From an uncultured Trueperaceae bacterium (GTDB lineage Bacteria; Deinococcota; Deinococci; Deinococcales; Trueperaceae): a DNA stretch of 64,000 bases. The notes beneath the pieces are model-generated. The model saw only the letters and a program-made list of their open reading frames with translations. It searched no databases and had not been told where the DNA came from. The DNA is taken from positions 192,001-256,000 of the forward strand of contig CAVSGP010000005.1 of NCBI GenBank assembly GCA_963727505.1. Reading direction: 5' to 3'. Position numbers and translations under genes: made by a program. This document shows positions 1 through 17,065 of this stretch, piece after piece; position 1 is the first letter of the stretch; every line of letters starts with the position of its first letter.

Positions 1-1204
1 TGTTGCACAGGGCCGCCACCTCGAGGGCTTCGCGCAGGTGCGGCAGGCGATCCAGCTCGGCCGGAGCCCCATCGAGCGTGAAGCCGCCCCCCTGCTCGGA
101 GGGCTGTGCCCGTCCCTCGGCCAGCCACAGGCCGGCGACCGCCATACGGTTCTCGGTCAGGGTGCCGGTCTTGTCGCTGAAGATCACGCTGGTCGCGCCC
201 AGCGTCTCGACGGCCGAGAGACGGTTGACCAGGGCGTTGCGCTCCGCCATCCGGCGCATGCCGCGGGCCAGCGTGATGGTGGCGATGATGGGCAGGCCCT
301 CGGGCACCGTCGCCACGGCCAGCGCGATGGCGGTCTCCAGGATCAGCAGCCAAGGCTTCCCGGCGACGATGCCGGTGACCGCGATGACCGCCGCGACGCC
401 CAGCGTCACCCACACCAGCCGTTGGCCGAGGCGGTCCAGGCGCCGCTCCAGCGGCGTCGTCTCGTCCTCGGCCTCGGCCACGAGCTGCGAGATGCGGCCC
501 AGCTCCGTCTCCATGCCGGTGGCGACGACCACGCCCTCGCCCGACCCGCGACTGATCGAGGTGCCCTTGTAGAGCATGCAGGCGCGCTCGGCCAGCGGAG
601 CGTCTTCCGCCACCGGCTCCGCTCGCTTGCCCGCAGGCAGGGACTCGCCGGTGAGCGTCGACTCGTTGGCCTGCAGCTTGGACGCCTGCAGCAGTCGAAC
701 GTCGGCGGTGACCACGTCGCCGCCCTCGACCAGCACGATATCCCCGGGAACCAGCGCGTCGGCTTCCACGGTGTCGAGGCCACCGTCGCGCCGGACGGTG
801 GCGTGTACGCGACCGAGACTGCGCAACGCTTCCATCGAACGCACGGCGCGCAGCTCCGTCATGAAGCCGATGGCGGCGTTCAACACCAGCACCACCACGA
901 CGGCCAGCGCCTCCACCCACTGTCCGAACAGCGCCGACAGCAGAGCCGCTACGGCCAGCAGCGCCACCAGCAGGCTGCGGAACTGCGCCACCAGCACCTG
1001 CCAGGCGCTGCGCCGCGGCGCCTCGCGCAGCGTGTTGGGACCGAAGCGCTCGAGCCGCCTGGCGACCTCGTCGGCGTCGAGCCCGCGCGTCCGTTCCACG
1101 CCCAGGGCCCGCGCGACGTCGCTGGCGGTCTCGGCCCAGGGCGATGCCGGGTCCCCAGGGGCGGGGGCTCCGGGTCGTGCCCGCGGGACGTCGGGCGCGC
1201 TCAT
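1..1204 (-). CDS. Cation-transporting P-type ATPase (P-IIA/Ca2+-like), N-terminal part; runs off the window start
   Basis: Manual minus-strand translation from ATG at 1204: RLERFGPNTL, ANESTLTGES, VPEGLP, IFSDKTGTLTENRM. Not in the ORF track because the stop lies outside the window. Confidence 0.95.
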   Translation of the reverse strand, partial: MSAPDVPRARPGAPAPGDPASPWAETASDVARALGVERTRGLDADEVARRLERFGPNTLREAPRRSAWQVLVAQFRSLLVALLAVAALLSALFGQWVEALAVVVVLVLNAAIGFMTELRAVRSMEALRSLGRVHATVRRDGGLDTVEADALVPGDIVLVEGGDVVTADVRLLQASKLQANESTLTGESLPAGKRAEPVAEDAPLAERACMLYKGTSISRGSGEGVVVATGMETELGRISQLVAEAEDETTPLERRLDRLGQRLVWVTLGVAAVIAVTGIVAGKPWLLILETAIALAVATVPEGLPIIATITLARGMRRMAERNALVNRLSAVETLGATSVIFSDKTGTLTENRMAVAGLWLAEGRAQPSEQGGGFTLDGAPAELDRLPHLREALEVAALCN

Positions 1205-1378
1205 AGGACCAGCCTAACGGCGGGTCCCGGAGTCGGCGAGGGGCGCCCGCCCCTCGCCGACGTTCGTGTCGCCCGTGACGCACGCGCGGCTGCAGGCGCT
1301 CGGGTAGGCTCGACACCGCGCAAGCTCTGCCGCGACGCCTCGACGCGTCGCCGCTGAATTCGAAGGAGGCGGTTGTCC

Positions 1379-2377
1379 ATGCAGTATCGTTCTCTCGGTT
1401 CCTCCGGCCTACGCGTGTCGGCGCTATCGTTCGGCGCCTGGGTCACGTTCGGCGACCAGATCGGCGAAGACACTGCCCTGGAGATGATGACGGCCGCTTA
1501 CGACGCGGGCGTCAACTTCTTCGACAACGCCGAGGCCTACTCGGCCGGCAAGGCCGAGACGATGATGGGCAACGTCATCAAGCGGGCGGGCTGGAAGCGC
1601 TCCGACCTGGTGCTGTCCACCAAGATCTTCTGGGGCGGCCCCGGGCCGAACGACCGCGGTCTGAGCCGCAAGCACGTCGTCGAGGGCACCGCCGCCGCCT
1701 TGAAGCGCCTCCAGACCGACTACGTCGACCTGGTCTTCTGTCATCGCCCCGATCGCTTCACCCCCATCGAGGAGACCGTGCGGGCGATGAACCATCTCAT
1801 CGACCAGGGCATGACCTTCTACTGGGGCACCAGCGAGTGGACCGCCGAGGAGATCCGCGAGGCGCACGAGGTGGCGCGCCGCGAGCACCTGGTCGGCCCC
1901 ACCATGGAGCAACCGCAGTACAACATGCTCCACCGCGAGCGCGTCGAGCGAGAGTATGCGCGGCTCTACGATGCCTTCGGGCTCGGCCTCACGGTGTGGA
2001 GCCCGCTGGCCAGCGGCATCCTCACCGGCAAGTACGACGACGGCTTCCAGGAGGGCACGCGCTTCGCCCTGGAGGGCTACGAGTGGCTGCGGCAGCGCCT
2101 GGAGTCCGAGCAGGGGAAGCGCGAGCGGGAAGCCGTCAAGAAGCTCAAGCCCATCGCCGACGACCTCGGTATCAGCCGGGCGCAGCTGGCCTTGGCCTGG
2201 GCGCTCAAGAACCCGAACGTGAGCACCGTCATCACCGGCGCCTCGCGGGCGGAACAGGTGCGCGAGAACATGAAGGCCGTCGACGCGGCCGAAAAGATCA
2301 CTTCCGACGTCATGGAGGCCATCGACGAGGTGCTGGGCAACAAGCCGGCCGCGCTGGAGGGCTTCGGGCGCGACTGA
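1379..2377 (+). CDS. Aldo/keto reductase (Kv-beta-like subfamily)
   Basis: [62 protein letters not shown] upstream. Confidence 0.95.
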
Positions 2378-2421
2378 TCCTGCCTTCTCCGCACGCGCCA
2401 GGCGATCTCGACATGCTTGTT

Positions 2422-2453
2422 CGGGCCCGGCCGCATCTTCGCGGCCGGGCCCG
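2422..2453. terminator. GC-rich hairpin between convergent genes (possible bidirectional terminator)
   Basis: CGGGCCCGGCCGC-atcttc-GCGGCCGGGCCCG, 13-bp stem. Confidence 0.65.
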
Positions 2454-2531
2454 GATCGTGGACGATGGAGGGACCGCTTCGCCCGACCCGCGCCGGGAGA
2501 TCGGCCAGGGGCGCCCCGCGCACGACCAGGT

Positions 2532-3878
2532 TCAGGGAGCGGTCGTGAACGTCGAGTCCTTGGACAAGGTGGACCAGCTCGGCATGTCCGGCCCTGCGAT
2601 CGAGATCGGTCCGGACCCTCCGCCGAAGATGCCTTCGAGCTCCAACAAGGGACCCGCCATCCCCGCCGGACCGGCCACGGCGTCCATCGACGCGTAGGGT
2701 CCTACGGCTTGGACCCAGAAGGAGTAACCCGCGCTATTCGGGAGTGCTCTGTTGATGGCGGTGAGATCCGGGAGGGTCGTCGAGGTATCGGTCGTTACGA
2801 TGTGGAGCTGGGTCCCGGGCCCGGCCGGGTCGAGCGTCAACAGATAGACCGATCCCGTCAGCGCCGTCCAGCTGAAGGTGGCGCCGGGAGCCACGTTCGT
2901 TGCTCCGGAGGCGGGCGCGGTGGGCATCGCGACGTTGGGCAGGATGAGGGAGGCCGACGGGTTCGGTGCCGTCACTGCGTCCCATGCTGTGGTGGAGTCG
3001 CCCGCACCGTCGGTCGCCGTCGCGGCCAGTCCGTGACTGATGCCGGTGGCGATCGGCACCATGGTGTTCGAGAACGAGCCGGACGGGTTGACGCTCGCAA
3101 GCTGGAGCCCCAGGAGCGCGCCGGCCGAGGCCGGTCCGAATCGGATCACCGCACGGCCGTCGGCGAGCGTGTAGCCCGATGGCGCCGTCAGGCTCCCACT
3201 CAGGGCCCCTGTCGATACGGAGCTGGCGGGGATGGTGACGCCCGTGAGCGCGTCACCGTCATGCAAGGTGACGTCGGTAGAGCCGTAGCCCGTGTAGCTG
3301 GTCGGGTTGCCACTTCCGTCGACGATGGCGCGGATCCCGTAGAGCGTGGTGTGCAGTGGATCGGTCGTGCTCCACTGGACCGTGCCGGGCCCGATGGTCG
3401 AGCTGCCGGTGGAGCCGCCCGCGCCACCGAACGCGAGCTCGGAGCCGCCCGGGAACATGGCGCCGGTCTCGTTCGACTGGAACGGAGCGGTGCCGATCGT
3501 GCCGGCGACGGTCGCCTGGTGGCCGGCCGGGAACCACAAGACCTGGACGGTCGGGTCGGCCCTCGTCAGGCCCTCGTAGACCCAGACCTCGGAGTCGCCC
3601 GCGAAGCTCAGGGTGACGTCGTAGGGCGCGTGGACGTCCGCTACCGTGAATGTCCCGTCGGTTGCGGTGCTCGTGACCTTACCGTCGAGGAGGACGTTGG
3701 CGTTGGCGATGGGGCCGGAGAAGTCGATCACCCGCCCTTGCACGGTGATGACCGACGGCGCCGCTGGCCCGCCGCAGCCCGTCAGGAGCGTCAGGACCGC
3801 GAGGACTGCGAGGCTCGCGATGGCCAGTGGCGAGCGGATGGCGGTGTGGGAGCGGGACGAGCGTGGCTGGTCGGACAT
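2532..3878 (-). CDS. Lipoprotein with an N-terminal carboxypeptidase-regulatory-like domain and further Ig-like/Fn3 beta-sandwich domains
   Basis: Hydrophobic signal plus lipobox LLTGC; VITVQGRVIDFSGPIANANVLL..TDGTFTV; G/T/S-rich beta composition; PASGATNV..FSW segment; GGAGG RBS before ATG 3878. Confidence 0.8.
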   Translation of the reverse strand: MSDQPRSSRSHTAIRSPLAIASLAVLAVLTLLTGCGGPAAPSVITVQGRVIDFSGPIANANVLLDGKVTSTATDGTFTVADVHAPYDVTLSFAGDSEVWVYEGLTRADPTVQVLWFPAGHQATVAGTIGTAPFQSNETGAMFPGGSELAFGGAGGSTGSSTIGPGTVQWSTTDPLHTTLYGIRAIVDGSGNPTSYTGYGSTDVTLHDGDALTGVTIPASSVSTGALSGSLTAPSGYTLADGRAVIRFGPASAGALLGLQLASVNPSGSFSNTMVPIATGISHGLAATATDGAGDSTTAWDAVTAPNPSASLILPNVAMPTAPASGATNVAPGATFSWTALTGSVYLLTLDPAGPGTQLHIVTTDTSTTLPDLTAINRALPNSAGYSFWVQAVGPYASMDAVAGPAGMAGPLLELEGIFGGGSGPISIAGPDMPSWSTLSKDSTFTTAP

Positions 3879-3963
3879 GCGCACCTCCGGAGGGGTGGTC
3901 CGCGGCGCCGTCCGAACCGATCGGGGCACGAGGCAGGACGCGGGCACGATCCCCCACGCATAC

Positions 3964-3996
3964 AGGATGGCAGGGCACCGTCTAGCCTGCGTCTAG
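3964..3996 (-). promoter_or_regulatory. SARP-type heptamer direct repeat plus -10 upstream of the lipoprotein gene
   Basis: Minus strand CTAGACG-cagg-CTAGACG-N9-CATCCT; heptamers at 3990-3996 and 3979-3985, 11-bp period. Confidence 0.7.
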
Positions 3997-4009
3997 CCTG
4001 TGCCCGACG

Positions 4010-4180
4010 TCACCAGTTCCGCAGCGTCTCCACCAGCAGGCGCACCCCGAAGCCCGTCGCGCCCTCCGGCCGGTACCCATCGGCGCGCTCGGCCAGCACC
4101 ATGCCGGCGATGTCCAGGTGGGCCCAGGGGTAGGCCGCGAACTCCTTCAGGAAGGCGGCCGAGGTGCCGACGCCGCCATC
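4010..4180 (-). pseudogene. pepA: C-terminal remnant of an M17 leucyl aminopeptidase
   Basis: GGVGTSAAFLKEFAAYPWAHLDIAG..GATGFGVRLLVE matches the M17 C-terminus; upstream sequence is not homologous. Confidence 0.8.
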
Positions 4181-4275
4181 GCCAGGGTGCCGCCCCCGAG
4201 CTCCAGCGCGCGGGCCCAAGGCGGCGTCGCGCGGGTGCTTCCGCGGCGTCGGGCCGTCCACTATCCTGGAGCCCG

Positions 4276-5343
4276 ATGTTCCTAGGTCCTGACGAGCTCT
4301 ATCCAGAAGGCGCGGGCGTGGCGGCACGGACGTTGATCGACGTGCGCGCCCCCGTCGAGGTGGCGCGCGGCGCCATGCCCGGCAGCCACGCCCTGCCGCT
4401 GATGAGCGACGAGGAGCGGCGCGAGGTCGGCATCCGCTACAAGGAGGCCGGCCAGGAAGCCGCCGTCGCGCTGGGTTACGAGCTGGCCGGTCCGCATCTG
4501 CCCGGCCGCATCGAGGCCTGGCGAGACGTGTGCGCGCAGGGCCCGAGCGCGGTGGCGTGCTGGCGCGGCGGCCTGCGCAGCGAGCTGGCGCTGTCGTTCA
4601 TCGATCGTGGCGACGTGGCGCGCGTGGCGGGCGGCTACAAGGCGCTGCGCCGTCACGTGATGGAGGCGTTGCCCCGTTCGTTGAGCCGCAAGGGCCTGGT
4701 GGTCCTGACGGGGCTCACGGGCTCCGGCAAGACGCGTCTGCTGCGTGCCCTGCCGGTCGACGACGGTCTGCAGGTGCTCGATCTGGAGGGCGCGGCGCGT
4801 CACCGCGGCAGCGCCTTCGGGGCCGAGGACGTGCCGCAACCCAGCCAGCAGACCTTCGAGAACGCGCTCGCCACCGAGCTCCTGCTCAGCCCGGCCGAGC
4901 GGTTGGTGGTGGAGGATGAGTCGCGCTACGTCGGTCGTCGCACGCTTCCGGACGACCTGATGGGGGCGATGCGAGACGCGCCGCTGGTGGTGCTCGAGAC
5001 CCCCATGGCGGAGCGGGTCACGGCCATCGTCGAGGAGTACGTCCTGGCCATGGCGCGGCGCCACGGCGTGCGGGCCGCGCGCGAGCGGCTCGAGCACGAC
5101 ACCCGGCGCATCCGCAAGCGCCTCGGCGGCGGTCGCACCGACGGCGTGGTGGCGGCGCTGCACGCCGCCGAGCAGGCGGACGCCTGGTTCGAGCCCGACG
5201 TCCATCGCTGGTGGGTGCAGACGTTGCTCGAGCACTACTACGACCGCCTCTACCGGAAGGCGACCCTGCGCCACGAGCGGCCCGTCGCCTTCCGGGGTGA
5301 CGCCGTGGCGGTGGCCGACTTCCTGCGGAGCGGTCCCGCGTGA
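4276..5343 (+). CDS. selU: tRNA 2-selenouridine(34) synthase
   Basis: Rhodanese domain IDVRAPVE..ER.EVGIRYK..CWRGGLRS..GGYK; P-loop GLTGSGKT; DLEGAARHRGSAFG; QPSQQTFEN; VEDESR. Confidence 0.95.
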   Translation: MFLGPDELYPEGAGVAARTLIDVRAPVEVARGAMPGSHALPLMSDEERREVGIRYKEAGQEAAVALGYELAGPHLPGRIEAWRDVCAQGPSAVACWRGGLRSELALSFIDRGDVARVAGGYKALRRHVMEALPRSLSRKGLVVLTGLTGSGKTRLLRALPVDDGLQVLDLEGAARHRGSAFGAEDVPQPSQQTFENALATELLLSPAERLVVEDESRYVGRRTLPDDLMGAMRDAPLVVLETPMAERVTAIVEEYVLAMARRHGVRAARERLEHDTRRIRKRLGGGRTDGVVAALHAAEQADAWFEPDVHRWWVQTLLEHYYDRLYRKATLRHERPVAFRGDAVAVADFLRSGPA

Positions 5344-5369
5344 GCCGTCGAAGCCTCAGAGGAGCGAGC

Positions 5370-6425
5370 ATGGAACCAGAACCGGCCGTCGCGCCGATCC
5401 GCCTGACCCACACGGTGAAGAAGGGCGGCTGTGCCGCTAAGATCGCGGCCGGTACCCTGAGCGACCTGTTGCGCTCCTTGCCGCGGCAGAGCCACCCCGA
5501 CCTGCTGGTCGGTAACGACATGCTGGATGACGCCGCGGTGTGGCGCGTCTCGGACGACGTGGCGATGATCCAGACGCTGGACTTCTTCACCCCGATCCTC
5601 GACGACCCCGCCGACTTCGGTGCGGTGGCGGCAGCCAACGCGCTCTCCGACGTGTTCGCCATGGGGGGCACGCCGACCACGGCCCTCACGATCCTGGCCT
5701 ATCCCCTCGGCATCCTGCCCGACGAGGTGCTGGGCACCCTGATGGCCGGGGCGACGGCCGTCATCAACGACGCCGGCGCTTTCCTGGTGGGCGGCCACTC
5801 CATCGAGGACGACACCCTCAAGCTGGGCTTCAGCGTGACCGGACTGGCCCACCCGGACCGGCTCTGGAGCAACAGCGGGGCGCGCGCCGGCGACGTGCTG
5901 ATCCTCACGAAGGCGGTCGGCACCGGCACGCTCTCGGGCGCGCTCAAGAACGACGAGATCGCTCCCGATGCCATGGCGCCGGCCATCGCATCGATGCGGC
6001 AGGTCAACCGCCTCGACCTGGACGACGGACTCCACCGCGCCGTCCACGCCGCCACCGACGTGACCGGCTTCGGCGTGCTGGGGCACGCGTTGCACGTGGC
6101 CGAAGGCTCGGCCGTGACGCTGCGCATCGACACCGGCGCGTTGCCGTTGCTGCCCGGCGCCGAGGACACGCTCAGGCGCGGCATCCTCACCAAGGCGCAC
6201 ACCACCAACGGCCGTTATGTGCAGCAGCGGGTGAGCGGCCGCGAGAGCGTGGACCCGGTGCGGTGGCTGGCGGCGGTGGACCCGCAGACGAGCGGCGGCC
6301 TGCTGCTCAGCGTCGCCCCGGAGCGTGCCACGGAGCTGCTCGCGGCCGTGGGCGAACGGTTCCCGGCGGCGTGCGTGGTGGGCGAGGTGACGGCGCGCGG
6401 CGCGTGGCCCCTCCAGGTGGTCTGA
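5370..6425 (+). CDS. selD: Selenophosphate synthetase (Cys-type)
   Basis: RLTHTVKKGGCAAKI, DDAAV, QTLDFFTPILDDP..FG, NALSDVFAMGG, GGHSIED, TDVTGFG, DPQTSGGLL. Confidence 0.95.
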   Translation: MEPEPAVAPIRLTHTVKKGGCAAKIAAGTLSDLLRSLPRQSHPDLLVGNDMLDDAAVWRVSDDVAMIQTLDFFTPILDDPADFGAVAAANALSDVFAMGGTPTTALTILAYPLGILPDEVLGTLMAGATAVINDAGAFLVGGHSIEDDTLKLGFSVTGLAHPDRLWSNSGARAGDVLILTKAVGTGTLSGALKNDEIAPDAMAPAIASMRQVNRLDLDDGLHRAVHAATDVTGFGVLGHALHVAEGSAVTLRIDTGALPLLPGAEDTLRRGILTKAHTTNGRYVQQRVSGRESVDPVRWLAAVDPQTSGGLLLSVAPERATELLAAVGERFPAACVVGEVTARGAWPLQVV

Positions 6426-6473
6426 GCGGACGCGGTCTCGTGGCTCCGCTTCCGAAGGTCGCGCGGTGGCCGC

Positions 6474-6674
6474 TCAGGTCTCGCCCCCGTCGTCTGCGAC
6501 GCTGCCGCGCAGGGCGATGAAGTCCGCCAGGTCCCTGGGGGAGGTGAAGTACGCGGCGGCACCGCTGGCGACGTCGCGTACCGAGCCGCGCAGGGCGGGC
6601 GGGCCGGACGACGCGGGCTCGAGCCACACCCGCACGACGAAGACCCACTGCTTGCGTCTGCCGGCATCGTCCAC
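6474..6674 (-). CDS. Small hypothetical protein (66 aa, predicted beta-beta-beta-alpha)
   Basis: FVVRVWLE..LRGSVRDVASG..YF..DLADFI; GGGAGGG RBS before the GTG start; co-oriented downstream of the SARP-STAND gene. Confidence 0.75.
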   Translation of the reverse strand: MDDAGRRKQWVFVVRVWLEPASSGPPALRGSVRDVASGAAAYFTSPRDLADFIALRGSVADDGGET

Positions 6675-6706
6675 GTCCGCCCTCCCAGTCTGCGACTCCC
6701 ATGGCC

Positions 6707-6739
6707 AGCATGCCGGGGCTGCGTCTAGGTAGCGTCTAG
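6707..6739 (-). promoter_or_regulatory. SARP-type heptamer direct repeat plus -10 upstream of the 66-aa gene
   Basis: Minus strand CTAGACG-ctac-CTAGACG-N9-CATGCT; heptamers at 6733-6739 and 6722-6728. Confidence 0.7.
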
Positions 6740-6767
6740 TCGCGCGCCCGCGGTGCTCCGGGGTACG

Positions 6768-9700
6768 TCACGGCCAGGGCGCGCCGTCCGCCGCCTCCGC
6801 GATCTCGCGGTTGAACTCCATGTCCAGGAAGGCGGCCCGCGCCGTCTCTCCGTCGATCGCGTCGGCCATCGTGCGCAGGCGCTCGCTGGCGCGCCTCGCC
6901 AGCGCCCGCGCCGCCGCTTCTTCGCCCTGGCCGTGACGGACGCGCGCCGCGACCCACGCGACCTGTTGCGGGTGGAGCAGCTCGTCGTCGCGCTTCTCGA
7001 GGAGCGCCAGGAGCTCGTCGGCAGCGGCCGACGCCTGCTCCAGGCGACCCTCCTCGAGATAGGCCAGCGCCAGCTCGCACAGCGCGTTGGCGGAGCTCGC
7101 GTCACGTCCCAGGCGTCGCTCGATGGCCAGCGCCTGGCACAGGTGTTCGATGGCGTCGTCGCGCGCCCCCAGGTGGCGCTCGGCGTCGCCGAGGTTGCTG
7201 AGGGCGGAGGCCGCCAGGAGGTCGTTTCCGGCCCCCCGCGCCAGCGCCAGCGCGCGCAGTGCCGCGCGGCGTGCGTCCTCGTGGCGGCGTCCGTACAGCA
7301 GGGCCGAGGAGCCGTTCAGCACGCACAGCGTCTCGCCGCGCCGGTCGCCGAGCCGCGCGAAGAGCTGCGCGGCGCGCTCCAGCCGCTCGGCGGCTGCGGC
7401 GTGATCGCCCAGCCGCAGGTCGAGCACGCCGCGGTTGAGCGAGACCGCGGCCAGGCCCTGGGGCCTCTCGAGTTCCCGGTAGAGTCTCTCGGCGACACGG
7501 TAGTGCGCCTTCGCCTCCGCCAGGCGCGTCAAGCGGGCGGCGCTCACGGCGCGGTACTGGTGAGCGTCGGCCTCCAGGCTGCGGTCGCCCGTGTCGAGGG
7601 CAAGGCGGAGCACGCGGGCGGTGAGCTCGAAGGCGTCTTCGAAGGCTTCCTCGCCGATGGCGGCCTGCAGGGCGGCGCGCAAGGCCTCCGCCACGAGCTC
7701 GGGCTCGTCGGCTGCGCCGGCTTGCTGGGCCGCGTCGAGGTGCTGGTGGACCTGCTCGGGCCGGCCGGCCGCGAGTGCAACGTGGACACCGAGACAGGCG
7801 GCGGCGAGGCTCAGGCGCCGGTCGTGGATCTGCTCGGCGAGCGCCGCGGCTTCGCTCAGGCGCTCCTCGGCGGCCGACGGGTCGCCGAGCGCCAGATCGT
7901 AGCCGGCCCGCAGCAGCGCCGCGTGCGCCCGCCACGCGGGACGGCCGTCGGCGGTTGCGCGGTCCGCCAGGCGCTCCAGGAGCTCCGCTTCGGCGGCGCG
8001 CCGGCCCAGCTCGCGCAGCAGCGCCACCCGCCTTACGTCGGCATCGAAGGAGGCCTGTTCGTCGCCGAGTGCTTCTGCCAGGGCGCTCATGGCGTCGAGC
8101 TGGAGGCGCTGTTGTTCGCGGTCCCCGCGCCGGCGTGCGGCGTCCTCGGCCAGCCGGTGGAGCTCGATCCGCAGCCGCGGCTCGCGCGCCAGCGTCAACG
8201 ACCAGGAGGCCAGGCTTCGCGCCTCCTCGCCGGCCCCGGCCTCCAGAGCCTCGCGGGCCGCCCGAAGGCCGTGCCGGGCGGCCCGGTCGGGCTCACCCCC
8301 GAGGTCGTAGTGCCTGGCCAGGGTCGCAGCGCTCGCGTCCGACATGCCGACGCGCTCCAGCGCATGCGCAGCGCGGCGGTGGTAGCGGGCGCGGGCGGAG
8401 GGGTCGACGCTCCGGTAGATGGCCTCGCGCATGAGCTGATGGCCGAAGGTGAAGGAGCCTGCGCGCCGTTCGCGCAGCAGGCGGGCGTCGAGCAAGAGGT
8501 CGAGGGCGTCGAGGGCCTCGCGCTCGTCTAAGGCCAGCACGTCGCGCACCGTTTCGAGGCGGAAGCTCTCGCCCACCACTGCCGCTGCCCCCGCGAAGGT
8601 GCGCGCTTCGGGGGTGAGGTGCTCGAGGCGCGCGGTGACCCGGCGGCGCACGCCGTCTGGGACCAACTCGGACCAGTCGGGTCCGGTGCGCGGAAGCATG
8701 GGGGCGCAGGGCGCGGGCGGGGTCGTGGTGTCGACGCCGCCGGTGTCGACACCGCCGGCGTCGGTGGCCGCCTCGTGGAGGAGCTCCGAGATCAGCAGCG
8801 GGTTACCGGCGCTGGCCGCTTCCAGCGCGGCCACCTCCTCGGGTGCTACCGCCGCAGGCTCGAGCCGGGCCAGGAGTGTCGCGATGGCCTCCGTGTCGAG
8901 CCCGGCGAGTGCGATCGCATCGAGGGAGCCGGCCTCCTCCAGCCGGCGTCGCAGGGCACGGAGCGGGTGGCCCGGCCCGAGCCGGTCGTCGCGGTAGGTC
9001 GCGACGATCAAGAGGGGGGCGTCGCGGGCGCGCTGCGCGAGGTGCTCGAGCAGCGCCACGCTCGCTTCGCCGGCGCCCTGCAGATCCTCCAACGCCAGCA
9101 GCAGGGGACGTGTGCCCGCCAGGTCGAGAAGCGCGCGACTGACGGCATGGAAGAGACGGGCGCGCTCCCGGTCGGGCGGCAGCTCCGGGAGCGGCGGTCC
9201 GGCTGGCATCGTCGGTGTCGCCGCCGGCAGCGCCCCCGCGAGCACCCGTCGCCACGGAGCGCTCCTGTCGCCGGCGGCGACCAGCAGGTTGAAGACGGGG
9301 CGTAGCGCCTCCGCTACCGCCTGGTACGGGCTCGCTTCCGGTTCGGAGGTGCCCCCCGCCAGGGCCCGGCCCTCGTCCGTCTCCGCGCGCTGAGCGAGCC
9401 GCCGCAGCAGCCTGCTCTTGCCGATCCCGGCGGGCCCCGCCAGCAGCACCAGACCGCCGCGGCCGGCGCGAGCGCGGTCCCAGCGGTCGCCCAGCGCCGC
9501 GAGCTCGCGCGCGCGTCCCGCGAAGGGGAGTTGCGGCGGAGCGCCGGCGCGGGCGGGTGCCGCCTCGCTCGGCGGGTCCAGCTCGCGAACCAGCGCCTCG
9601 AACAGGGCGCGCGTCTGCTGCATGGGTTCCACGCGGAGCTCGGTGGCCAGCAGGTCGGAGAACCGGTCGTAGACGGCCAGCGCCCCCGCCCGATCGCCGG

Positions 9701-10283
9701 CGCTGTAGCGCACGCGCATCGCCAGCCGCACGGCGTCCTCCCGCAGGGGATCCTCCCGCAGAAGCCGGTCCAGCACCGCCAGCGCTTCCGGACCGCGACC
9801 GGCCCCCAGATAGCGTTCGGCCAGCTCCAGCAGCACGCCGAGCAGCACGGCCCGCAGGCGTTCGCGCTCGACGAGCAGCCACTCGTCGTCTTGGTCCGTC
9901 AGGAGGTGGTCGGCGTAGAGGGCGGCGGCGCGCTCGAGGTCCCCGCGGGCGGCCGCTTCCTCGAACGCGCATGCGTCGACCCACAGGTTGGCGTCGCGCA
10001 TGAGCCCGACGCGCGAGCCGTCGGTGAGGACCCACGTCCCGGCTGTAGGATCGGGCAGCGCCTGCTTGAGGTAGTGGAGGTGGCGCCGAAGGTTGGTGCG
10101 CGCCTGGTCGGGATCGCTGTCGGGCCACAGCGCCCCCGCAACCGTGCGCCGGTCCTGCGGCGTCGGGTGCAGCGCCAGGTAGGCCAGCAACGGACCGGTG
10201 CGCGGCGGAGCGGAGAGCGGGAGGGGCCGCGCATCGACAGCGACCCTGAGCGGGCCGAACAGGTACACCCGCATCCTACCCAT
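6768..10283 (-). CDS. AfsR/SARP-family STAND regulator: wHTH + BTAD + P-loop NTPase + TPR repeats
   Basis: VYLFGPLRV..LLAYLAL..LWPD..ARTNLR; BTAD EWLLVERERLR, DPLREDAVRLAMR; FAGRARELAAL, Walker A GPAGIGKS, Walker B LLALEDLQ, GNPLLISEL, FGHQLMREAIY; TPR-like C-terminal half. Confidence 0.92.
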   Translation of the reverse strand: MGRMRVYLFGPLRVAVDARPLPLSAPPRTGPLLAYLALHPTPQDRRTVAGALWPDSDPDQARTNLRRHLHYLKQALPDPTAGTWVLTDGSRVGLMRDANLWVDACAFEEAAARGDLERAAALYADHLLTDQDDEWLLVERERLRAVLLGVLLELAERYLGAGRGPEALAVLDRLLREDPLREDAVRLAMRVRYSAGDRAGALAVYDRFSDLLATELRVEPMQQTRALFEALVRELDPPSEAAPARAGAPPQLPFAGRARELAALGDRWDRARAGRGGLVLLAGPAGIGKSRLLRRLAQRAETDEGRALAGGTSEPEASPYQAVAEALRPVFNLLVAAGDRSAPWRRVLAGALPAATPTMPAGPPLPELPPDRERARLFHAVSRALLDLAGTRPLLLALEDLQGAGEASVALLEHLAQRARDAPLLIVATYRDDRLGPGHPLRALRRRLEEAGSLDAIALAGLDTEAIATLLARLEPAAVAPEEVAALEAASAGNPLLISELLHEAATDAGGVDTGGVDTTTPPAPCAPMLPRTGPDWSELVPDGVRRRVTARLEHLTPEARTFAGAAAVVGESFRLETVRDVLALDEREALDALDLLLDARLLRERRAGSFTFGHQLMREAIYRSVDPSARARYHRRAAHALERVGMSDASAATLARHYDLGGEPDRAARHGLRAAREALEAGAGEEARSLASWSLTLAREPRLRIELHRLAEDAARRRGDREQQRLQLDAMSALAEALGDEQASFDADVRRVALLRELGRRAAEAELLERLADRATADGRPAWRAHAALLRAGYDLALGDPSAAEERLSEAAALAEQIHDRRLSLAAACLGVHVALAAGRPEQVHQHLDAAQQAGAADEPELVAEALRAALQAAIGEEAFEDAFELTARVLRLALDTGDRSLEADAHQYRAVSAARLTRLAEAKAHYRVAERLYRELERPQGLAAVSLNRGVLDLRLGDHAAAAERLERAAQLFARLGDRRGETLCVLNGSSALLYGRRHEDARRAALRALALARGAGNDLLAASALSNLGDAERHLGARDDAIEHLCQALAIERRLGRDASSANALCELALAYLEEGRLEQASAAADELLALLEKRDDELLHPQQVAWVAARVRHGQGEEAAARALARRASERLRTMADAIDGETARAAFLDMEFNREIAEAADGAPWP

Positions 10284-10383
10284 CCCCCCTCCGTTGTGGA
10301 TGGCGACACCCTAGCACCGCTTCGTGAAGCACGGCGAGGCAGATGTCGCATCGGCTCGGGGAGCCCTCAGGCGGGCAGCTGGG

Positions 10384-10707
10384 TCAGTTCTTGGAAGGGC
10401 GGGCGCGCTCCAGGAGCATCGCTACCGACACCGGCTCGCGCGGCTGGAGTCCGTCGATGATGCCGCCGCGGGCGACGAAGGCGGCCACCGTCTCGTAGGC
10501 CTGCTGCGCCTCCTCGGCGCTCTCGCTGTCGAACAGCACGGCCTCGCGACCGGACGGCAGGACCGCAACCAGCTCGAGGTAGTCCGGCTCGAGCGTGTCG
10601 TCCTCCGCGCCATCGAGCTCGGTGCCTTCGGGGAAGACCTCCAGCAGCTCGATGCTCTCTACCAGCGCGACGTTGATGAGCTTGGCGTCCAGCGTCCACA
10701 TCCACAC
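10384..10707 (-). CDS. Acidic hypothetical protein
   Basis: GTG start with AGGAGA RBS; MWMWTLDAKLINVALVESIELLEV..., globular composition. Confidence 0.7.
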   Translation of the reverse strand: MWMWTLDAKLINVALVESIELLEVFPEGTELDGAEDDTLEPDYLELVAVLPSGREAVLFDSESAEEAQQAYETVAAFVARGGIIDGLQPREPVSVAMLLERARPSKN

Positions 10708-10828
10708 GGTTCCGTCTCCTTGGGGCGCCGCTGGGCCACGGCCGGCGCATGTCATCCGCGGGCCGCTCCGGCGCGTCCGCGCCAGAGCATAGCGCACCGC
10801 CGCGAACCTTCGCACCGGGCAGGCGTTC

Positions 10829-11650
10829 TCACGGGGTCGGCCCCACGCGCTCGATCTCCACGGCCCGGCCGCCGCGCGCCCGGACCAGTACCGCCCCGAG
10901 CTCCGCCGGTCCCTGCGCGAAGCCGCCCCGCCCCCGGACCGGGCGGCGGTGGCGCAGGGCGTCGACGAAGACCTCGGGGGCGTAACCCTGCATGCCGCCA
11001 CCAGGTCCGGTCATCCCCACGTCGCTGACGTAGGCGGTGCCGCCCGGCAACACGCGGTCGTCGAGCGTGGGCACGTGGGTGTGTGTGCCCAGCACCGCGG
11101 CGACGCGCCCGGCCACCGACCAGGCGAAGATCTGCTTCTCGCTGACCGATTCGCCGTGGAAGTCGACGAGCACCAGATCGACCGGCTCCGCGCGCCAACG
11201 CTCGAGCTGTCGCACGAGGGCGTCGTAGGGCGCCTGCACGCCGGGCATGGCGGTCGCGCTGACCAGGCTGACCACGCCCAGCCGGACCCCCGCCCGCGCC
11301 ACCACGACCGCCCCGCGACCGGGCGCCTCGCCGTGGATGTTGAGCGGTCGCGCCACCTCGGGCTCCGCCAAGGCGGCGATGGTCTCGGCACTGTCCCAGG
11401 AGTGGTTGCCGCCGGTGATGGCGTCTACGCCGAGCGCGCGCAAGCGCTCCACGTCGTGGCGCGTCATGCCCGCGCCGGCCACCGCGTTCTCCCCCGTGAG
11501 CGAGGCGTTCTCGGCGTTGGCGACAACGAAGTGGGGGTGCAGCCGTTGCCGGAGGCGGGGCAACGCCACGGCCAGCAGATCGAGCCCCGCATCGCCGACG
11601 ATGTCGCCGATGAACAGCAGGTGGATGTCGCGGTCGGCCGGCGCGGCCAT
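10829..11650 (-). CDS. ymdB: YmdB/TIGR00282-family metallophosphoesterase
   Basis: LFIGDIVG, NAENA, GNHSWD, VDFHGESVSEK, GTHTHVPT, SDVGMTGP. Confidence 0.92.
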   Translation of the reverse strand: MAAPADRDIHLLFIGDIVGDAGLDLLAVALPRLRQRLHPHFVVANAENASLTGENAVAGAGMTRHDVERLRALGVDAITGGNHSWDSAETIAALAEPEVARPLNIHGEAPGRGAVVVARAGVRLGVVSLVSATAMPGVQAPYDALVRQLERWRAEPVDLVLVDFHGESVSEKQIFAWSVAGRVAAVLGTHTHVPTLDDRVLPGGTAYVSDVGMTGPGGGMQGYAPEVFVDALRHRRPVRGRGGFAQGPAELGAVLVRARGGRAVEIERVGPTP

Positions 11651-11733
11651 GGTCGAGTCCAGTGTCGCACGCCGCCGATCCTAGCCTGCGTGTAAGAGTT
11701 CCGTGCACGCCGGGTTCCTACACTTCGGGAACG

Positions 11734-13443
11734 ATGCGACGCCTGCTCTTCCTGGTCGCTCCCCCCGTCTTCTGGAGTGCATACATCGTGGACTTCCCGT
11801 ACCTCTATGGTCACATCGGGGACCACACCCGCCTGGTGGGTCTGGCGTTGGTCGCCGTCACCGCCTGGTTGTGGGGGACCCCCGGCGGGCTCCTCAACGG
11901 CCTGATCGGCCTGGTGCTGAGCGAGGGGCTGATCTCGATCATGCAAGGCGGGGCCTTCACCCTCCCTGCCGTGGCGGGCGGCGACGATCTGTTCAAGGCG
12001 CTCGCCTTCGGTGGCGCGGGCCTCGGGTTCGGCTACCTGCGCAACGCGCGCGACCAGATGGAGCACCATCGCAGCGCCTTCGAGCTGGCTCAGCTCGACC
12101 CCCTCACGGGCCTGCTCAACCGGGCGGGTTTCCACGAGAAGCTCACCGAGGTGTTGGAGCAGGCGCGCGAGGAGGGCACCCTGGTGGCGTTCCTGTTCGT
12201 CGACCTCGACCGCTTCAAGTTCGTCAACGACACCTACGGTCACGAGGTCGGCGACGCGCTGCTCAAGAAGGTCGGGCGGGCGCTGCGCGACAGCGTGCGC
12301 GACGACGATCTGGTGGGGCGCCTGGGCGGTGACGAGTTCACCGTGGCCCTGCTGCACCTACACGATGCCAAGGACGCCAGCCTGGTGGCACGAAACATGG
12401 TGCGCGTGCTGAGCGCCCCGCTGTCGATCGACGACCGCGAGCTGCGCATCTCGGCCAGCGTCGGCGTCAGTCTCTTCCCGCGCGACGGCGATAACGTCGA
12501 GGCGCTCACCCGCAGCGCCGACACGGCCATGTACGAGGTCAAGGACGGTGGCAAGAACTCCTTCCACTTCTCCTCCATGGAGATGCGCTCGCGCGTCAGC
12601 CGCCGGCTCGAGCTCGAGCGCGAGCTGCGTGATGCCATCACGAACCAGGAGTTCGAGCTGGTCTACCAGCCGCAGGTCGAGCTGGATTCGGGCCGGCTGG
12701 TGGCTTTCGAAGCGCTGCTGCGCTGGTCCAACCCGAAACTCGGCAAGGTGTCGCCGGGCGAGTTCATCCCGGTGGCGGAGGAGGCGGGCTACATCGGCAA
12801 GCTCGGTCACTGGATCCTGCGCGAGGCCTGCTTCCAGTCGCGGGCCTGGCAGAAGGCGGGCCTGAGGCCGGTGCGCATGGCGGTGAACGTGTCCACGCTG
12901 CAGTTCCGGCAGTTCGGGTTCCTCGCCACCGTTCAGGGCGCCCTTGCTGACAGCGGCATCGACCCGTCGCTGCTCGAGATCGAGATCACCGAGAGCGTGC
13001 TCGCCAAAGAGTACGAGCTGGCCATGAACACCGTCACGCGGCTCGGCCGCATGGGCGTGCGGACCGCCTTGGACGACTTCGGCACCGGCTACTCCTCGCT
13101 GGCGTACCTGCAGCACCTTCCCATCGCCAGCCTGAAGATCGACCAATCGTTCGTGATGGCGCTCCACAACGCCCCCGGCATCGATCACGTGAGCGCCGTC
13201 CCGATCGTCGAGGCGATCGTGGCGATGGCCCACAAACTGCGTAAGACGATCGTGGCGGAGGGCGTCGAGACCGAGGCACAGCGACGCTTCCTCCAGCAGC
13301 TCGGGGTGGACTACGCCCAGGGCTTCCACTTCGCCAAGCCGATGACGCGCCAGCGGGCAGAGCGCCTGCTGGAGCGCAAGGAGCGCGACCGCACGCCGAT
13401 CCCCGACATGCAGGATCCAACCCCCCTGCTGCTGCTCGACTGA
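11734..13443 (+). CDS. Membrane-anchored diguanylate cyclase/phosphodiesterase (GGDEF-EAL)
   Basis: N-terminal TM helices; DPLTGLLNR, DLDRFKFVND, RLGGDEF; FEALLRW, DDFGTGYSS, AEGVET, QGFHFAKP. Confidence 0.95.
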   Translation: MRRLLFLVAPPVFWSAYIVDFPYLYGHIGDHTRLVGLALVAVTAWLWGTPGGLLNGLIGLVLSEGLISIMQGGAFTLPAVAGGDDLFKALAFGGAGLGFGYLRNARDQMEHHRSAFELAQLDPLTGLLNRAGFHEKLTEVLEQAREEGTLVAFLFVDLDRFKFVNDTYGHEVGDALLKKVGRALRDSVRDDDLVGRLGGDEFTVALLHLHDAKDASLVARNMVRVLSAPLSIDDRELRISASVGVSLFPRDGDNVEALTRSADTAMYEVKDGGKNSFHFSSMEMRSRVSRRLELERELRDAITNQEFELVYQPQVELDSGRLVAFEALLRWSNPKLGKVSPGEFIPVAEEAGYIGKLGHWILREACFQSRAWQKAGLRPVRMAVNVSTLQFRQFGFLATVQGALADSGIDPSLLEIEITESVLAKEYELAMNTVTRLGRMGVRTALDDFGTGYSSLAYLQHLPIASLKIDQSFVMALHNAPGIDHVSAVPIVEAIVAMAHKLRKTIVAEGVETEAQRRFLQQLGVDYAQGFHFAKPMTRQRAERLLERKERDRTPIPDMQDPTPLLLLD

Positions 13444-13527
13444 GGCCGTACCTGTCATGACGGTATGCGCTCGGTAGGATGGAGCGCGGGTGCCGCGGTG
13501 CGGCGCCCTTCGAAAGGCAGGCGTTCC

Positions 13528-14979
13528 ATGACCGACCAAGCTGCCGACATCGGCCTCATCGGCCTTGCCGTGATGGGGCAGAACCTCGTACTCAACATGG
13601 AGGAGCACGGTTTCCGCGTGGCCGTGTACAACCGCACCCGGCAGAAGACGGACGACTTCCTGGCGGGCCCCGCCAGGGACCGCGCCATCGTGGGCACGGG
13701 GAGCCTCGAAGAGATGGTGGGCGCCCTGAAGCGACCCCGCCGCGTCATGCTGATGGTGCAGGCCGGCCGGGCGGTGGACGCCGTCCTCGACGAGCTGACG
13801 CCCCTGCTCCAGGAGGGCGACATCGTCATCGACGGCGGGAACTCCTTCTTCGAGGACACCATCCGGCGCGAGCGCGCGCTGCGCGAGAAGGGCCTGCACT
13901 ACCTCGGCGCCGGCGTCTCCGGCGGCGAGGAGGGCGCCCGCCACGGCCCCTCGATCATGCCCGGCGGCCCGGCACAGGCCTGGGAGCCGGTGAGGACGAT
14001 CCTGCAGGCCATCGCGGCGCAGGTCGACGGCGAGCCCTGCTGCGACTGGCTGGGCGAGGACGGTGCCGGTCACTTCGTGAAGATGGTGCACAACGGCATC
14101 GAGTACGGCGACATGCAGCTCATCGCCGAGGCGTACGACCTGCTCCGGCACGGCGTCGGCCTGACGCCTCAGGAGCTCCAGCGGGTGTTCGCGGGATGGA
14201 ACGAGGGCGACCTCGACTCCTACCTGATCGAGATCACCCGCGACATCCTGGGTACCTACGACGACGACGGGAAGCTCGTTCTCGACGTGATCCTGGACGC
14301 GGCGGGCCAGAAGGGCACGGGCCGTTGGACCGCGGTGACCGCGCTGCACCAGGGCATCCCGGTCACGCTGGTGACCGAGGCGGTGTTCGCGCGCTCGCTG
14401 TCGGCGCTGAAGGAGGAGCGGGAGGTGGCGTCCGAGCACCTGAGCGGACCGGACGCGGCCTTCGAGGGCGACCGCGACGCCTTCGTGGCGGACGTGGGTC
14501 GCGCCCTGTACGCGGCCAAGATCGCGAGCTACGCGCAGGGCTTCATGCTGCTGTCCGCTGCGGCAGCCGAGCACGATTGGTCGCTCGACCTCGGCAAGGT
14601 GGCCATGCTGTGGCGCGGCGGCTGCATCATCCGCTCGCGCTTCCTGCGCGACATCCGCGACGCCTACGCCGCCGATCCGAAGCTCCCCAATCTGCTGCTC
14701 GCCCCCTACTTCCGGGACGCCGTGGTGGGCGCGCAGGACGCCTGGCGGCGCGTGGTGGGAGAGGGCGCGAAGCTGGGCATCGCCATGCCGGCGTTCTCGG
14801 CGGCACTCGCCTTCTACGACGGCTACCGCCGCGGCCGCCTGCCGGCCAACCTCATCCAGGCGCAGCGCGACTACTTCGGGGCGCACACCTTCGAGCGGGT
14901 CGACCGCCCGCGCGGCGAGTTCAGCCACTTCGACTGGACCGGGCACGGCATCGCCACCTCGGGGAGCTATCAGGCGTGA
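13528..14979 (+). CDS. gndA: 6-phosphogluconate dehydrogenase (decarboxylating)
   Basis: IGLIGLAVMG, GVSGGEEGARHGP, KMVHNGIEYGDMQ, QKGTGRW, QAQRDYFGAHTF. Confidence 0.97.
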   Translation: MTDQAADIGLIGLAVMGQNLVLNMEEHGFRVAVYNRTRQKTDDFLAGPARDRAIVGTGSLEEMVGALKRPRRVMLMVQAGRAVDAVLDELTPLLQEGDIVIDGGNSFFEDTIRRERALREKGLHYLGAGVSGGEEGARHGPSIMPGGPAQAWEPVRTILQAIAAQVDGEPCCDWLGEDGAGHFVKMVHNGIEYGDMQLIAEAYDLLRHGVGLTPQELQRVFAGWNEGDLDSYLIEITRDILGTYDDDGKLVLDVILDAAGQKGTGRWTAVTALHQGIPVTLVTEAVFARSLSALKEEREVASEHLSGPDAAFEGDRDAFVADVGRALYAAKIASYAQGFMLLSAAAAEHDWSLDLGKVAMLWRGGCIIRSRFLRDIRDAYAADPKLPNLLLAPYFRDAVVGAQDAWRRVVGEGAKLGIAMPAFSAALAFYDGYRRGRLPANLIQAQRDYFGAHTFERVDRPRGEFSHFDWTGHGIATSGSYQA

Positions 14980-15118
14980 GGGCCGCGCCCCGTGCGGGCC
15001 GCGTCGTCCAGCGGGACAAGTGCACGCCGGAAGGCGTGCTACACTAGCTGCTTGCGGGTCGCGCTGCCTTCCCGGGCACGGGAACGCCGGGAGCGGGAGC
15101 GCCCCGCGCAGCGATGCC

Positions 15119-15187
15119 CGATTCCAGCGACGATTCCATCGACACCGGATTCCATGACGCGAATTCCATGACGCCGATTCCATGACA
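15119..15187. repeat. Five degenerate repeats with ATTCCA core in the rpoD leader
   Basis: ATTCCA at 15121, 15133, 15149, 15163 and 15177, mostly followed by TGAC. Confidence 0.8.
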
Positions 15188-15217
15188 GCACGAGCCAAGA
15201 CCAAACGGGGAGGGACG

Positions 15218-17065
<1,848 letters not shown>

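Follow-up and report, generated by a model that had tools for sequence, protein, structure and literature searches.

A 1171-amino-acid (aa) regulator of the 'large SARP' type, encoded in a 64,000-nucleotide (nt) stretch of DNA from an uncultured Trueperaceae bacterium (Deinococcota; GCA_963727505.1, contig CAVSGP010000005.1, positions 192,001 to 256,000 of the forward strand; the whole stretch is called the window here), very probably activates the genes of a 448-aa lipoprotein and of a 66-aa protein through tandem CTAGACG pairs, with predicted transcription starts near positions 3957 and 6700. This interpretation relies on sequence comparison and on analogy with characterised SARPs, and it describes what appears to be a real regulon of known SARP type. 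Its most interesting part would be the 66-aa protein, since it belongs to an apparently undescribed family which, judged by gene neighbourhood, is a constant companion of SARP/BTAD genes across several phyla. The features of the predicted regulon are the following:

6768..10283, minus strand: SARP-STAND activator, 1171 aa; winged helix-turn-helix (wHTH) and BTAD at about residues 1-234, AAA_16 at residues 253-427, then a TPR sensor region
6722..6739, minus strand: heptamer pair CTAGACG-CTAC-CTAGACG upstream of the small gene; predicted box for two SARP domains
6707..6712, minus strand: weak -10-like hexamer CATGCT; start site predicted at about 6700 from afsS geometry
6474..6674, minus strand: 66-aa protein of a beta3-alpha family (GTG start at 6674); predicted target and possible feedback partner
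3979..3996, minus strand: heptamer pair CTAGACG-CAGG-CTAGACG upstream of the lipoprotein gene
3964..3969, minus strand: weak -10-like hexamer CATCCT; start site predicted at about 3957
2532..3878, minus strand: 448-aa lipoprotein (ATG at 3878; lipobox LTGC, Cys35); predicted target

The heptamer pairs and their conservation in relatives

The first-pass annotation of this DNA had pointed out two tandem CTAGACG pairs with a 4-nt spacer, both on the minus strand and with no other pair seen, each followed after exactly 9 nt by a CATnCT hexamer, in DNA where CTAG is scarce, and it had proposed a genome-wide scan for the motif. All of these observations held when the window and the 3.26-Mb host genome were scanned (the host genome is designated G000; other G numbers stand for genomes and L numbers for loci). 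G000 contains two copies of the exact pair, both in the window and flanking the activator gene, and the same was true for every spacer of 0-30 nt. No further pair was found in the window at up to two mismatches, a tolerance at which shuffled sequences gave 0.31 matches on average. The single heptamer occurs 35 times in the genome, CTAG is rarer than expected (observed/expected ratio 0.33), and the gap between the pair and CATCCT or CATGCT is 9 nt at both sites. A third site, at G000:C2:297042, has one mismatch and is followed by what a deletion has left of a beta-helix lipoprotein gene. The spacers of the two window sites differ and their flanks fail to align, which argues against a local duplication. 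A scan of the region for sigma-70 consensus promoters returned none, as expected when the -35 element is absent. In the window scan no CTAGACG pair was found upstream of the STAND gene, i.e., there was no sign of autoregulation, and an Rfam scan of window positions 1-16000 gave no match.

In nine orthologous small-gene promoters, which were picked by the exact pair, the heptamers are invariant while the spacer and flanks drift. The pair ahead of the lipoprotein gene is kept in G002, G003, G005, G006 and G008 (with three heptamers in G003 and G008) and has one mismatch in G007. To evaluate the -10 elements we searched the genomes for sites with no more than one mismatch and used 24 distinct ones, obtained from 26 rows after two upstream triplet windows had been dropped: a hexamer with A2 and T6 stood 9 nt from the pair at 21 of these sites, 10 nt from it at one and was missing at two, the background rate of such a hexamer being 2.3% per position. 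Among 111 family genomes the exact pair was detected in eight, comprising all seven that carry an orthologue of the activator (E < 1e-90) and one of the 104 others; the lone pair in a non-carrier (G026) lacks a -10 hexamer, and a reversed control pattern gave two matches. The sister of the carrier G006, G009 (ultrafast bootstrap 93), retains selD, selU, pepA and the lipoprotein gene. In G009 the activator and a close small gene were not found, the contigs flanking their position overlap by 9 nt, and no pair was detected upstream of the lipoprotein gene, where the best candidate had 5 mismatches in 14. In G005 the box before the small gene is absent; the small gene abuts the STAND gene and is retained. 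Taken together, these comparisons support the view that the sites behave as conserved SARP-type activator boxes ahead of weak -10 elements.

Outside the clade the situation was different. A scan across GTDB recovered at least 123 stretches with the exact pair, and among the matches listed most came from unrelated taxa, four loci had a SARP match, none had a small-gene match, and an A2/T6 hexamer stood at 9 nt in 27 of 149, many of these being low-complexity TAGA repeats. Thus, the bare 18-mer is not diagnostic there. Several Pelagibacteraceae contigs (L166, L167, L234, L237-L239) contain TAGA-rich repeats that include the CTAGACG pair several times per contig; these repeats are unrelated to the heptamer regulon.

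The activator and its relation to known systems

Orthology supported the earlier gene assignments, namely a lipoprotein, a 66-aa protein and a protein with wHTH, BTAD, NTPase and TPR parts. In the activator, Pfam detected BTAD (E 2.5e-19; 70.5 bits versus a cut-off of 22.1), AAA_16 (E 1.8e-29) and TPR_12 (E 6.4e-10, above cut-off), together with a weak TPR_MalT match (E 0.0033) and no cyclase-like part. Its N-terminal 241 residues match chains of EmbR (2fez, E 8.7e-9) and AfsR (E 1.5e-7), residues 2-234 being aligned to both, and the wHTH has no separate Pfam match. STAND NTPases are recognised by P-loop Walker A and Walker B motifs and a GxP motif, followed by sensor repeats; the activator has GPAGIGKS, LLLALED and AGNPLL, respectively, and the repeats after the NTPase. 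Since the NTPase scores as AAA_16, we take it to be of the MalT/LAL-like class. NACHT remained below cut-off, NB-ARC was not among the Pfam matches, and the PADLOC defence-system models matched none of the three proteins (activator, small protein and lipoprotein). The earlier label 'NLR-like' therefore fits loosely in respect of the STAND and TPR build but not in respect of the NTPase or of a defence-model match. With 52.1 bits against a cut-off of 1430 for the NCBIfam AfsR equivalog NF053617, the activator is not an AfsR orthologue. In a 19-row tree of SARP domains, whose sequences were sampled by similarity to the small protein of the window, the activator groups with Chloroflexota and Eremiobacterota proteins (support 100/98), apart from most Deinococcota proteins, which suggests that the module may have been transferred. 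The best solved-structure match to the wHTH-BTAD part is EmbR of Mycobacterium tuberculosis (2fez). EmbR has a C-terminal FHA domain, whereas the window activator ends in NTPase-TPR; MalT of E. coli binds DNA by a C-terminal LuxR HTH, whereas the window activator has an N-terminal SARP domain.

According to PMC10936776, AfsR binds two 11-bp direct repeats that replace the -35 element; some 16-17 nt after them comes a suboptimal -10 element of the form CAnnnT, which is CACTGT in the afsS promoter of Streptomyces coelicolor. The window sites match the AfsR box in their 11-bp period and layout. The likeness to AfsR also includes the SARP-NTPase-TPR build, the sequence match of the SARP domain and an adjacent small gene as predicted target; the order of activator, box and adjacent small target gene is the one given for afsR-afsS in PMC10972967. 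In contrast to AfsR, the window NTPase scores as AAA_16 and not as NB-ARC, the heptamer and the recognition helix differ, the predicted targets are lipoproteins and not antibiotic clusters, and the host belongs to Deinococcota. The small protein is distinguished from AfsS by its predicted folded beta3-alpha family and shows no sign of relation to it, though no alignment was made. The window system resembles the SARP-LAL regulators PimR, SanG and PolR (PMC5930380) in its 4-nt-spaced heptamers and in the combination of SARP with a LAL/MalT-type ATPase: PimR binding needs two heptamers with a 4-nt spacer, SARP-LAL sites sometimes have three heptamers, as in the triplets of G003 and G008, and the window box overlaps the -35 position as in SanG and PolR, whereas the PimR box lies upstream. 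The activator can also be likened to MalT as an ATP-binding-dependent STAND transcription activator (PMC10936776). Altogether, an OmpR-type wHTH followed by BTAD and 11-bp-period repeats over the -35 position before a weak -10 place the system among the 'large' SARPs. A 2024 review describes SARPs as exclusive to actinobacteria (PMC10972967). Here, the relatives are Deinococcales and the predicted targets are lipoproteins, so that neither an actinobacterial host nor control of a secondary-metabolite cluster applies.

The small family, the heptamer code and the lipoprotein cargo

A profile search with the 66-aa protein returned 325 clusters at 50% identity (E ≤ 0.001), 150 of which were listed, two of these being repeat artefacts; the resulting alignment of 138 rows excludes the artefacts as well as some long or redundant entries. 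Pfam, NCBIfam and PADLOC models gave no match to the protein, and we found no description of the family or the regulon in the open-access literature. The AlphaFold model (predicted local distance difference test, pLDDT, 85) has three strands and one helix. No fold in PDB or BFVD matched it significantly (best VIA Z 4.9; Foldseek PDB E > 0.4), and a sequence search in PDB returned nothing convincing. R29 is invariant in the family and R15 and W17 are nearly so, all three lying on the sheet. A search through 8000 scored candidates revealed no fused or longer forms, but as evidence this is weak. The idea that the family is a split piece of the SARP domain was rejected (hhalign probability 0.5%). 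In the host phylum, 104 of 301 genomes had a detected family member (E ≤ 1e-4; the tally includes the unpublished G260); members were also detected in 19 of 151 Chloroflexota and 13 of 81 Eremiobacterota genomes (both E ≤ 1e-8) and 3 of 201 Actinomycetota genomes (E ≤ 1e-6, with another profile); none was found in the one Streptomyces genome searched.

We fetched the loci of 60 among the top-scoring Deinococcota matches and of 20 from Chloroflexota and Eremiobacterota. A SARP gene lay within 10 kb of the small gene at 68 of the 80 loci (50/60 and 18/20, respectively) and within 700 bp at 23/60 and 17/20. Since a number of the neighbouring genes encode SARP-only proteins (309-351 aa), what the loci share seems to be the SARP domain. 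The relatedness of the small proteins also follows that of their own SARPs (rank correlation 0.47 over 47 adjacent pairs, reached in 0 of 500 permutations), a correlation which linkage alone would yield. Several loci where the small gene has other neighbours were observed as well. At L336, L127, L119 and L337 a SARP-only gene and a small gene stand beside other operons; the genes that follow at L336 appear, by their motifs, to resemble contractile-injection tail sheath and tube proteins, and L119 and L127 share another uncharacterised gene cluster. At L133 (9835) and L138 (9884) the small gene, with a TGGAAGC pair, heads an operon including molybdenum-cofactor genes and a 1255-aa gene that is presumably molybdoenzyme-like, with no complete SARP gene in the 20-kb stretch. 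At G000:C2:229183-230678 (L148) a second RpoD-like sigma gene, 57% identical to the RpoD of the window over 297 aa, is followed by a 75-aa paralogue of the family. A general link of the family to sigma genes was unsupported; such a sigma-linked paralogue was detected in only 1 of 201 genomes.

The promoter layout recurs at these genes. At 63 small-gene loci, exact non-coding 7-mer repeats with YAnnnT after them peaked at period 11 and offsets 15-18, with counts of 18, 31, 18 and 27, no other cell exceeding 11 (a long repeat is counted in more than one period/offset cell), whereas the whole G000 genome had no period-11 peak (5 at offset 16). Among the small-gene promoters of Chloroflexota and Eremiobacterota, 49 of 50 loci entered the count, an exact repeat was present in nine, and period 11 stood nearly alone. 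Helices of the type RxNLRRH pair with xxGACG heptamers (CTAGACG, TTGGACG, TCGGACG, GAGGACG) in three phyla, while NLAQALRR pairs with GTCATGC and NLRQALFT with CTAACGC. The heptamer letters thus appear to follow the SARP recognition helix, with shared ancestry contributing to the pattern.

Each of three heptamer regulons in G000 (CTAGACG, ATAACGC and CTTGACG) contains a small-gene paralogue. In the CTTGACG module (G000:C9:201935-204700, L149), a gene for an 814-aa SARP protein and a small-gene paralogue that looks degenerate are accompanied by two CTTGACG pairs, each with its -10 hexamer, upstream of a membrane protein gene and of genes for large secreted proteins; a third CTTGACG site at C9:215155 precedes a lipoprotein gene. 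ATAACGC/GTAACGC pairs with TAnnnT at C4:211971, C5:25769, C6:47949 and C10:50550 precede one gene for a secreted protein and three for lipoproteins; the small-gene paralogue belongs to the C6 member, and a 1109-aa SARP-STAND protein at C4:216753 is likely to be the activator of this regulon. In an Eremiobacterota genome (G501, L346), at least seven TCGGACG pairs occur within 19 kb around an RRH-type SARP-STAND gene, preceding many small secreted or lipoprotein genes, as in a dense form of the same regulon.

The 448-aa protein of the window has the hydrophobic signal stretch and lipobox cysteine of a bacterial lipoprotein, LTGC being conserved in the alignment (a pattern match only). Its AlphaFold model (pLDDT 85) is almost all beta; Foldseek returned tandem Ig/Fn3 and pilin/adhesin chains with low TM scores (0.10-0.19), the PF13620 match was weak and below cut-off, and its Atlas neighbours were unnamed or CarboxypepD_reg-like. 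We therefore predict tandem beta-sandwich domains (Ig/Fn3/carboxypeptidase-regulatory-like). In other carriers (L152-L157, L036) all seven distal sites with a -10 hexamer precede lipobox genes of unrelated types, including beta-helix/DUF1565 and unnamed proteins, which implies that the Ig-like lipoprotein is exchangeable cargo. The three-part system proposed earlier consequently stands in so far as both flanking genes are predicted targets; the lipoprotein is the variable member, and the conserved pair is the SARP and small genes. At the third G000 site (C2:297042-297311; L046 7043-7312) the box is followed by a 55-codon open reading frame, identical in G004; we considered it as a signalling peptide and rejected this because it is the deletion remnant of the beta-helix lipoprotein gene.

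The following features lie between the target genes or, in relatives, at the corresponding position:

5370..6425, plus strand: selD, selenide water dikinase (TIGR00476 above cut-off); syntenic neighbour outside the regulon
4276..5343, plus strand: selU/mnmH, tRNA 2-selenouridine synthase (TIGR03167 above cut-off); syntenic neighbour
4010..4192, minus strand: 3' remnant of pepA, M17 aminopeptidase (PF00883), last ~61 codons
L353 26-135, L373 8233-8291, L049 11763-11842, L050 10370-10469: copies of a hairpin element

The suggestion that the regulon is now interrupted by pepA'-selU-selD, in the sense of a recent event, was not upheld: the block is genus-wide synteny. It separates the activator and small gene from the lipoprotein gene in G002, G003, G005 and G007, where pepA is intact (497-501 aa), as it is in G008 (beside the lipoprotein gene on a separate contig) and in G009. 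In G000, pepA was cut by a deletion of ~1.35 kb relative to G003 (blastn break 4192/4220 versus L047 7813/9173), and no other copy was found in the assembly; pepA is absent from the locus in G006 and L371. The metagenome locus L373 has the activator, box, small gene, box and lipoprotein homologue contiguously, which shows that the uninterrupted arrangement occurs. A short conserved non-coding hairpin element, possibly a small RNA, is present between selD and the small gene in four relatives but not in G000. All carriers, and G009 too, encode a conserved acidic protein of ~107 aa (window 10384-10728, minus strand; no Pfam match), which lies upstream of the STAND gene.

Proposed mechanism, alternatives and significance

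By analogy with AfsR, the NTPase and TPR parts would hold the activator off until a signal allows ATP binding. Two wHTH-BTAD domains would then bind head-to-tail on the two CTAGACG repeats with their 11-bp period, and the repeats would substitute for the -35 element, the bound domains holding the housekeeping sigma holoenzyme on the weak CATnCT -10. The outputs would be whichever surface lipoproteins acquired the box, here the Ig-like one, and the 66-aa protein. Direct binding, the start sites and the ATP control are what we infer from these comparisons. The lipoprotein cargo suggests an envelope, adhesion or conflict response, and the signal could possibly be an envelope or conflict response to phage.

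Several observations weigh against this interpretation. The carriers belong to one genus and are not independent, and therefore represent the signal of one lineage and not seven trials. The G009 case is a single event, seen in an assembly of 600 contigs that is 89% complete, and with such fragmentation the loss of activator and site there is suggestive only. Many small-gene loci lack a site under the strict rule, 40 of the 49 non-Deinococcota promoters have no exact repeat, and a SARP gene within 10 kb is lacking at 10 of the 60 Deinococcota loci. The loci were chosen by their top scores against a profile built on the 66-aa protein of the window, and the control for the neighbourhood counts (3.9% of random 20-kb windows hold a SARP gene) comes from G000 alone; the lack of a specific fold match for the small protein counts likewise. 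Finally, G000 encodes five SARP-domain proteins. One of the four others (C2:58640) has the recognition helix QARTNLRRELHH, similar to that of the activator, and the module at C9:201935 adjoins CTTGACG pairs, one base off CTAGACG, so that cross-reading of the boxes is possible; moreover, G004 has a CTAGACG/CTAAACG site while no activator was found there. It could be argued from this that the boxes are read mainly by the C2 or C9 protein, with the neighbouring STAND protein a contributor or bystander. We regard this as improbable, because exact pairs track the orthologue (7/7 carriers versus 1/104 others), relatives with the RRH helix are surrounded by xxGACG boxes in other phyla, and the C9 module has CTTGACG sites of its own. 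The G004 assembly (81% complete) misses the whole region, as does G001, so both are uninformative. Similarly improbable is an anti-phage NLR-like (Avs-type) module in which the STAND protein senses phage proteins: the STAND-TPR architecture would suit it, but PADLOC gave no match, the output domain is the transcription-activating SARP, and the predicted targets are surface lipoproteins and, at other loci with a SARP and a small gene, putative contractile-injection-like operons. Almost no weight can be given to the two sites being by-products of local duplication or chance with no regulatory role; they are two similar 33-bp stretches 2.7 kb apart, but their spacers differ, their flanks are unalignable, the heptamers are conserved while their neighbours drift, and unlinked copies precede lipoprotein genes at the same spacing.

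For the 66-aa protein we favour, tentatively, a negative-feedback brake acting on the SARP domain or the promoter complex, because each regulon would induce its own small-gene copy and G005 kept the gene after loss of the box; the adjacency to SARP-only proteins is consistent with this role. A positive co-activator or amplifier that targets sigma or RNA polymerase, as a functional equivalent of AfsS, seems a rather less likely role. It is encouraged by the layout mirrored in afsR-afsS (PMC10972967) and by the G000 paralogue directly behind a second RpoD-like sigma gene, but that arrangement is found in a single genome of 201, the small proteins track their own SARP lineage (as linkage alone would have them do), and the family was detected in just 3 of 201 Actinomycetota genomes. 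Three-stranded sheets bind DNA in MBD, AP2 and integrase arm domains, and the conserved R29, R15 and W17 on the sheet, with weak Foldseek rows to MBD and Cren7 (E > 1), could indicate a nucleic-acid binder that competes for the heptamers or is their true reader. We consider this quite unlikely, given that the structural matches are not significant and that specificity is already explained by the heptamer varying with the SARP recognition helix, without the small protein as reader. Roles of some other kind are unlikely, though somewhat less so than nucleic-acid binding.

With the feedback role as our preferred reading, it is conceivable, if still short of an even chance, that the 66-aa protein is the first member of a widespread and so far undescribed family of SARP regulators, each a small anti-activator or adaptor that its cognate activator induces to shape the response. 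The review associates SARPs with actinobacteria and antibiotic clusters (PMC10972967), and the same promoter logic appears to be readable in three other phyla. The correspondence between helix and heptamer would predict targets and could give orthogonal activator-promoter pairs, and the small family offers a specific candidate means by which STAND switches would be adjusted or turned off. If true, the small family together with the heptamer code set by the helix would constitute a general circuit for envelope or conflict responses, shared by Deinococcota, Chloroflexota and Eremiobacterota, one which rewires surface lipoproteins and injection-system operons, while the SARP biology of Streptomyces would be largely without the small-protein part.

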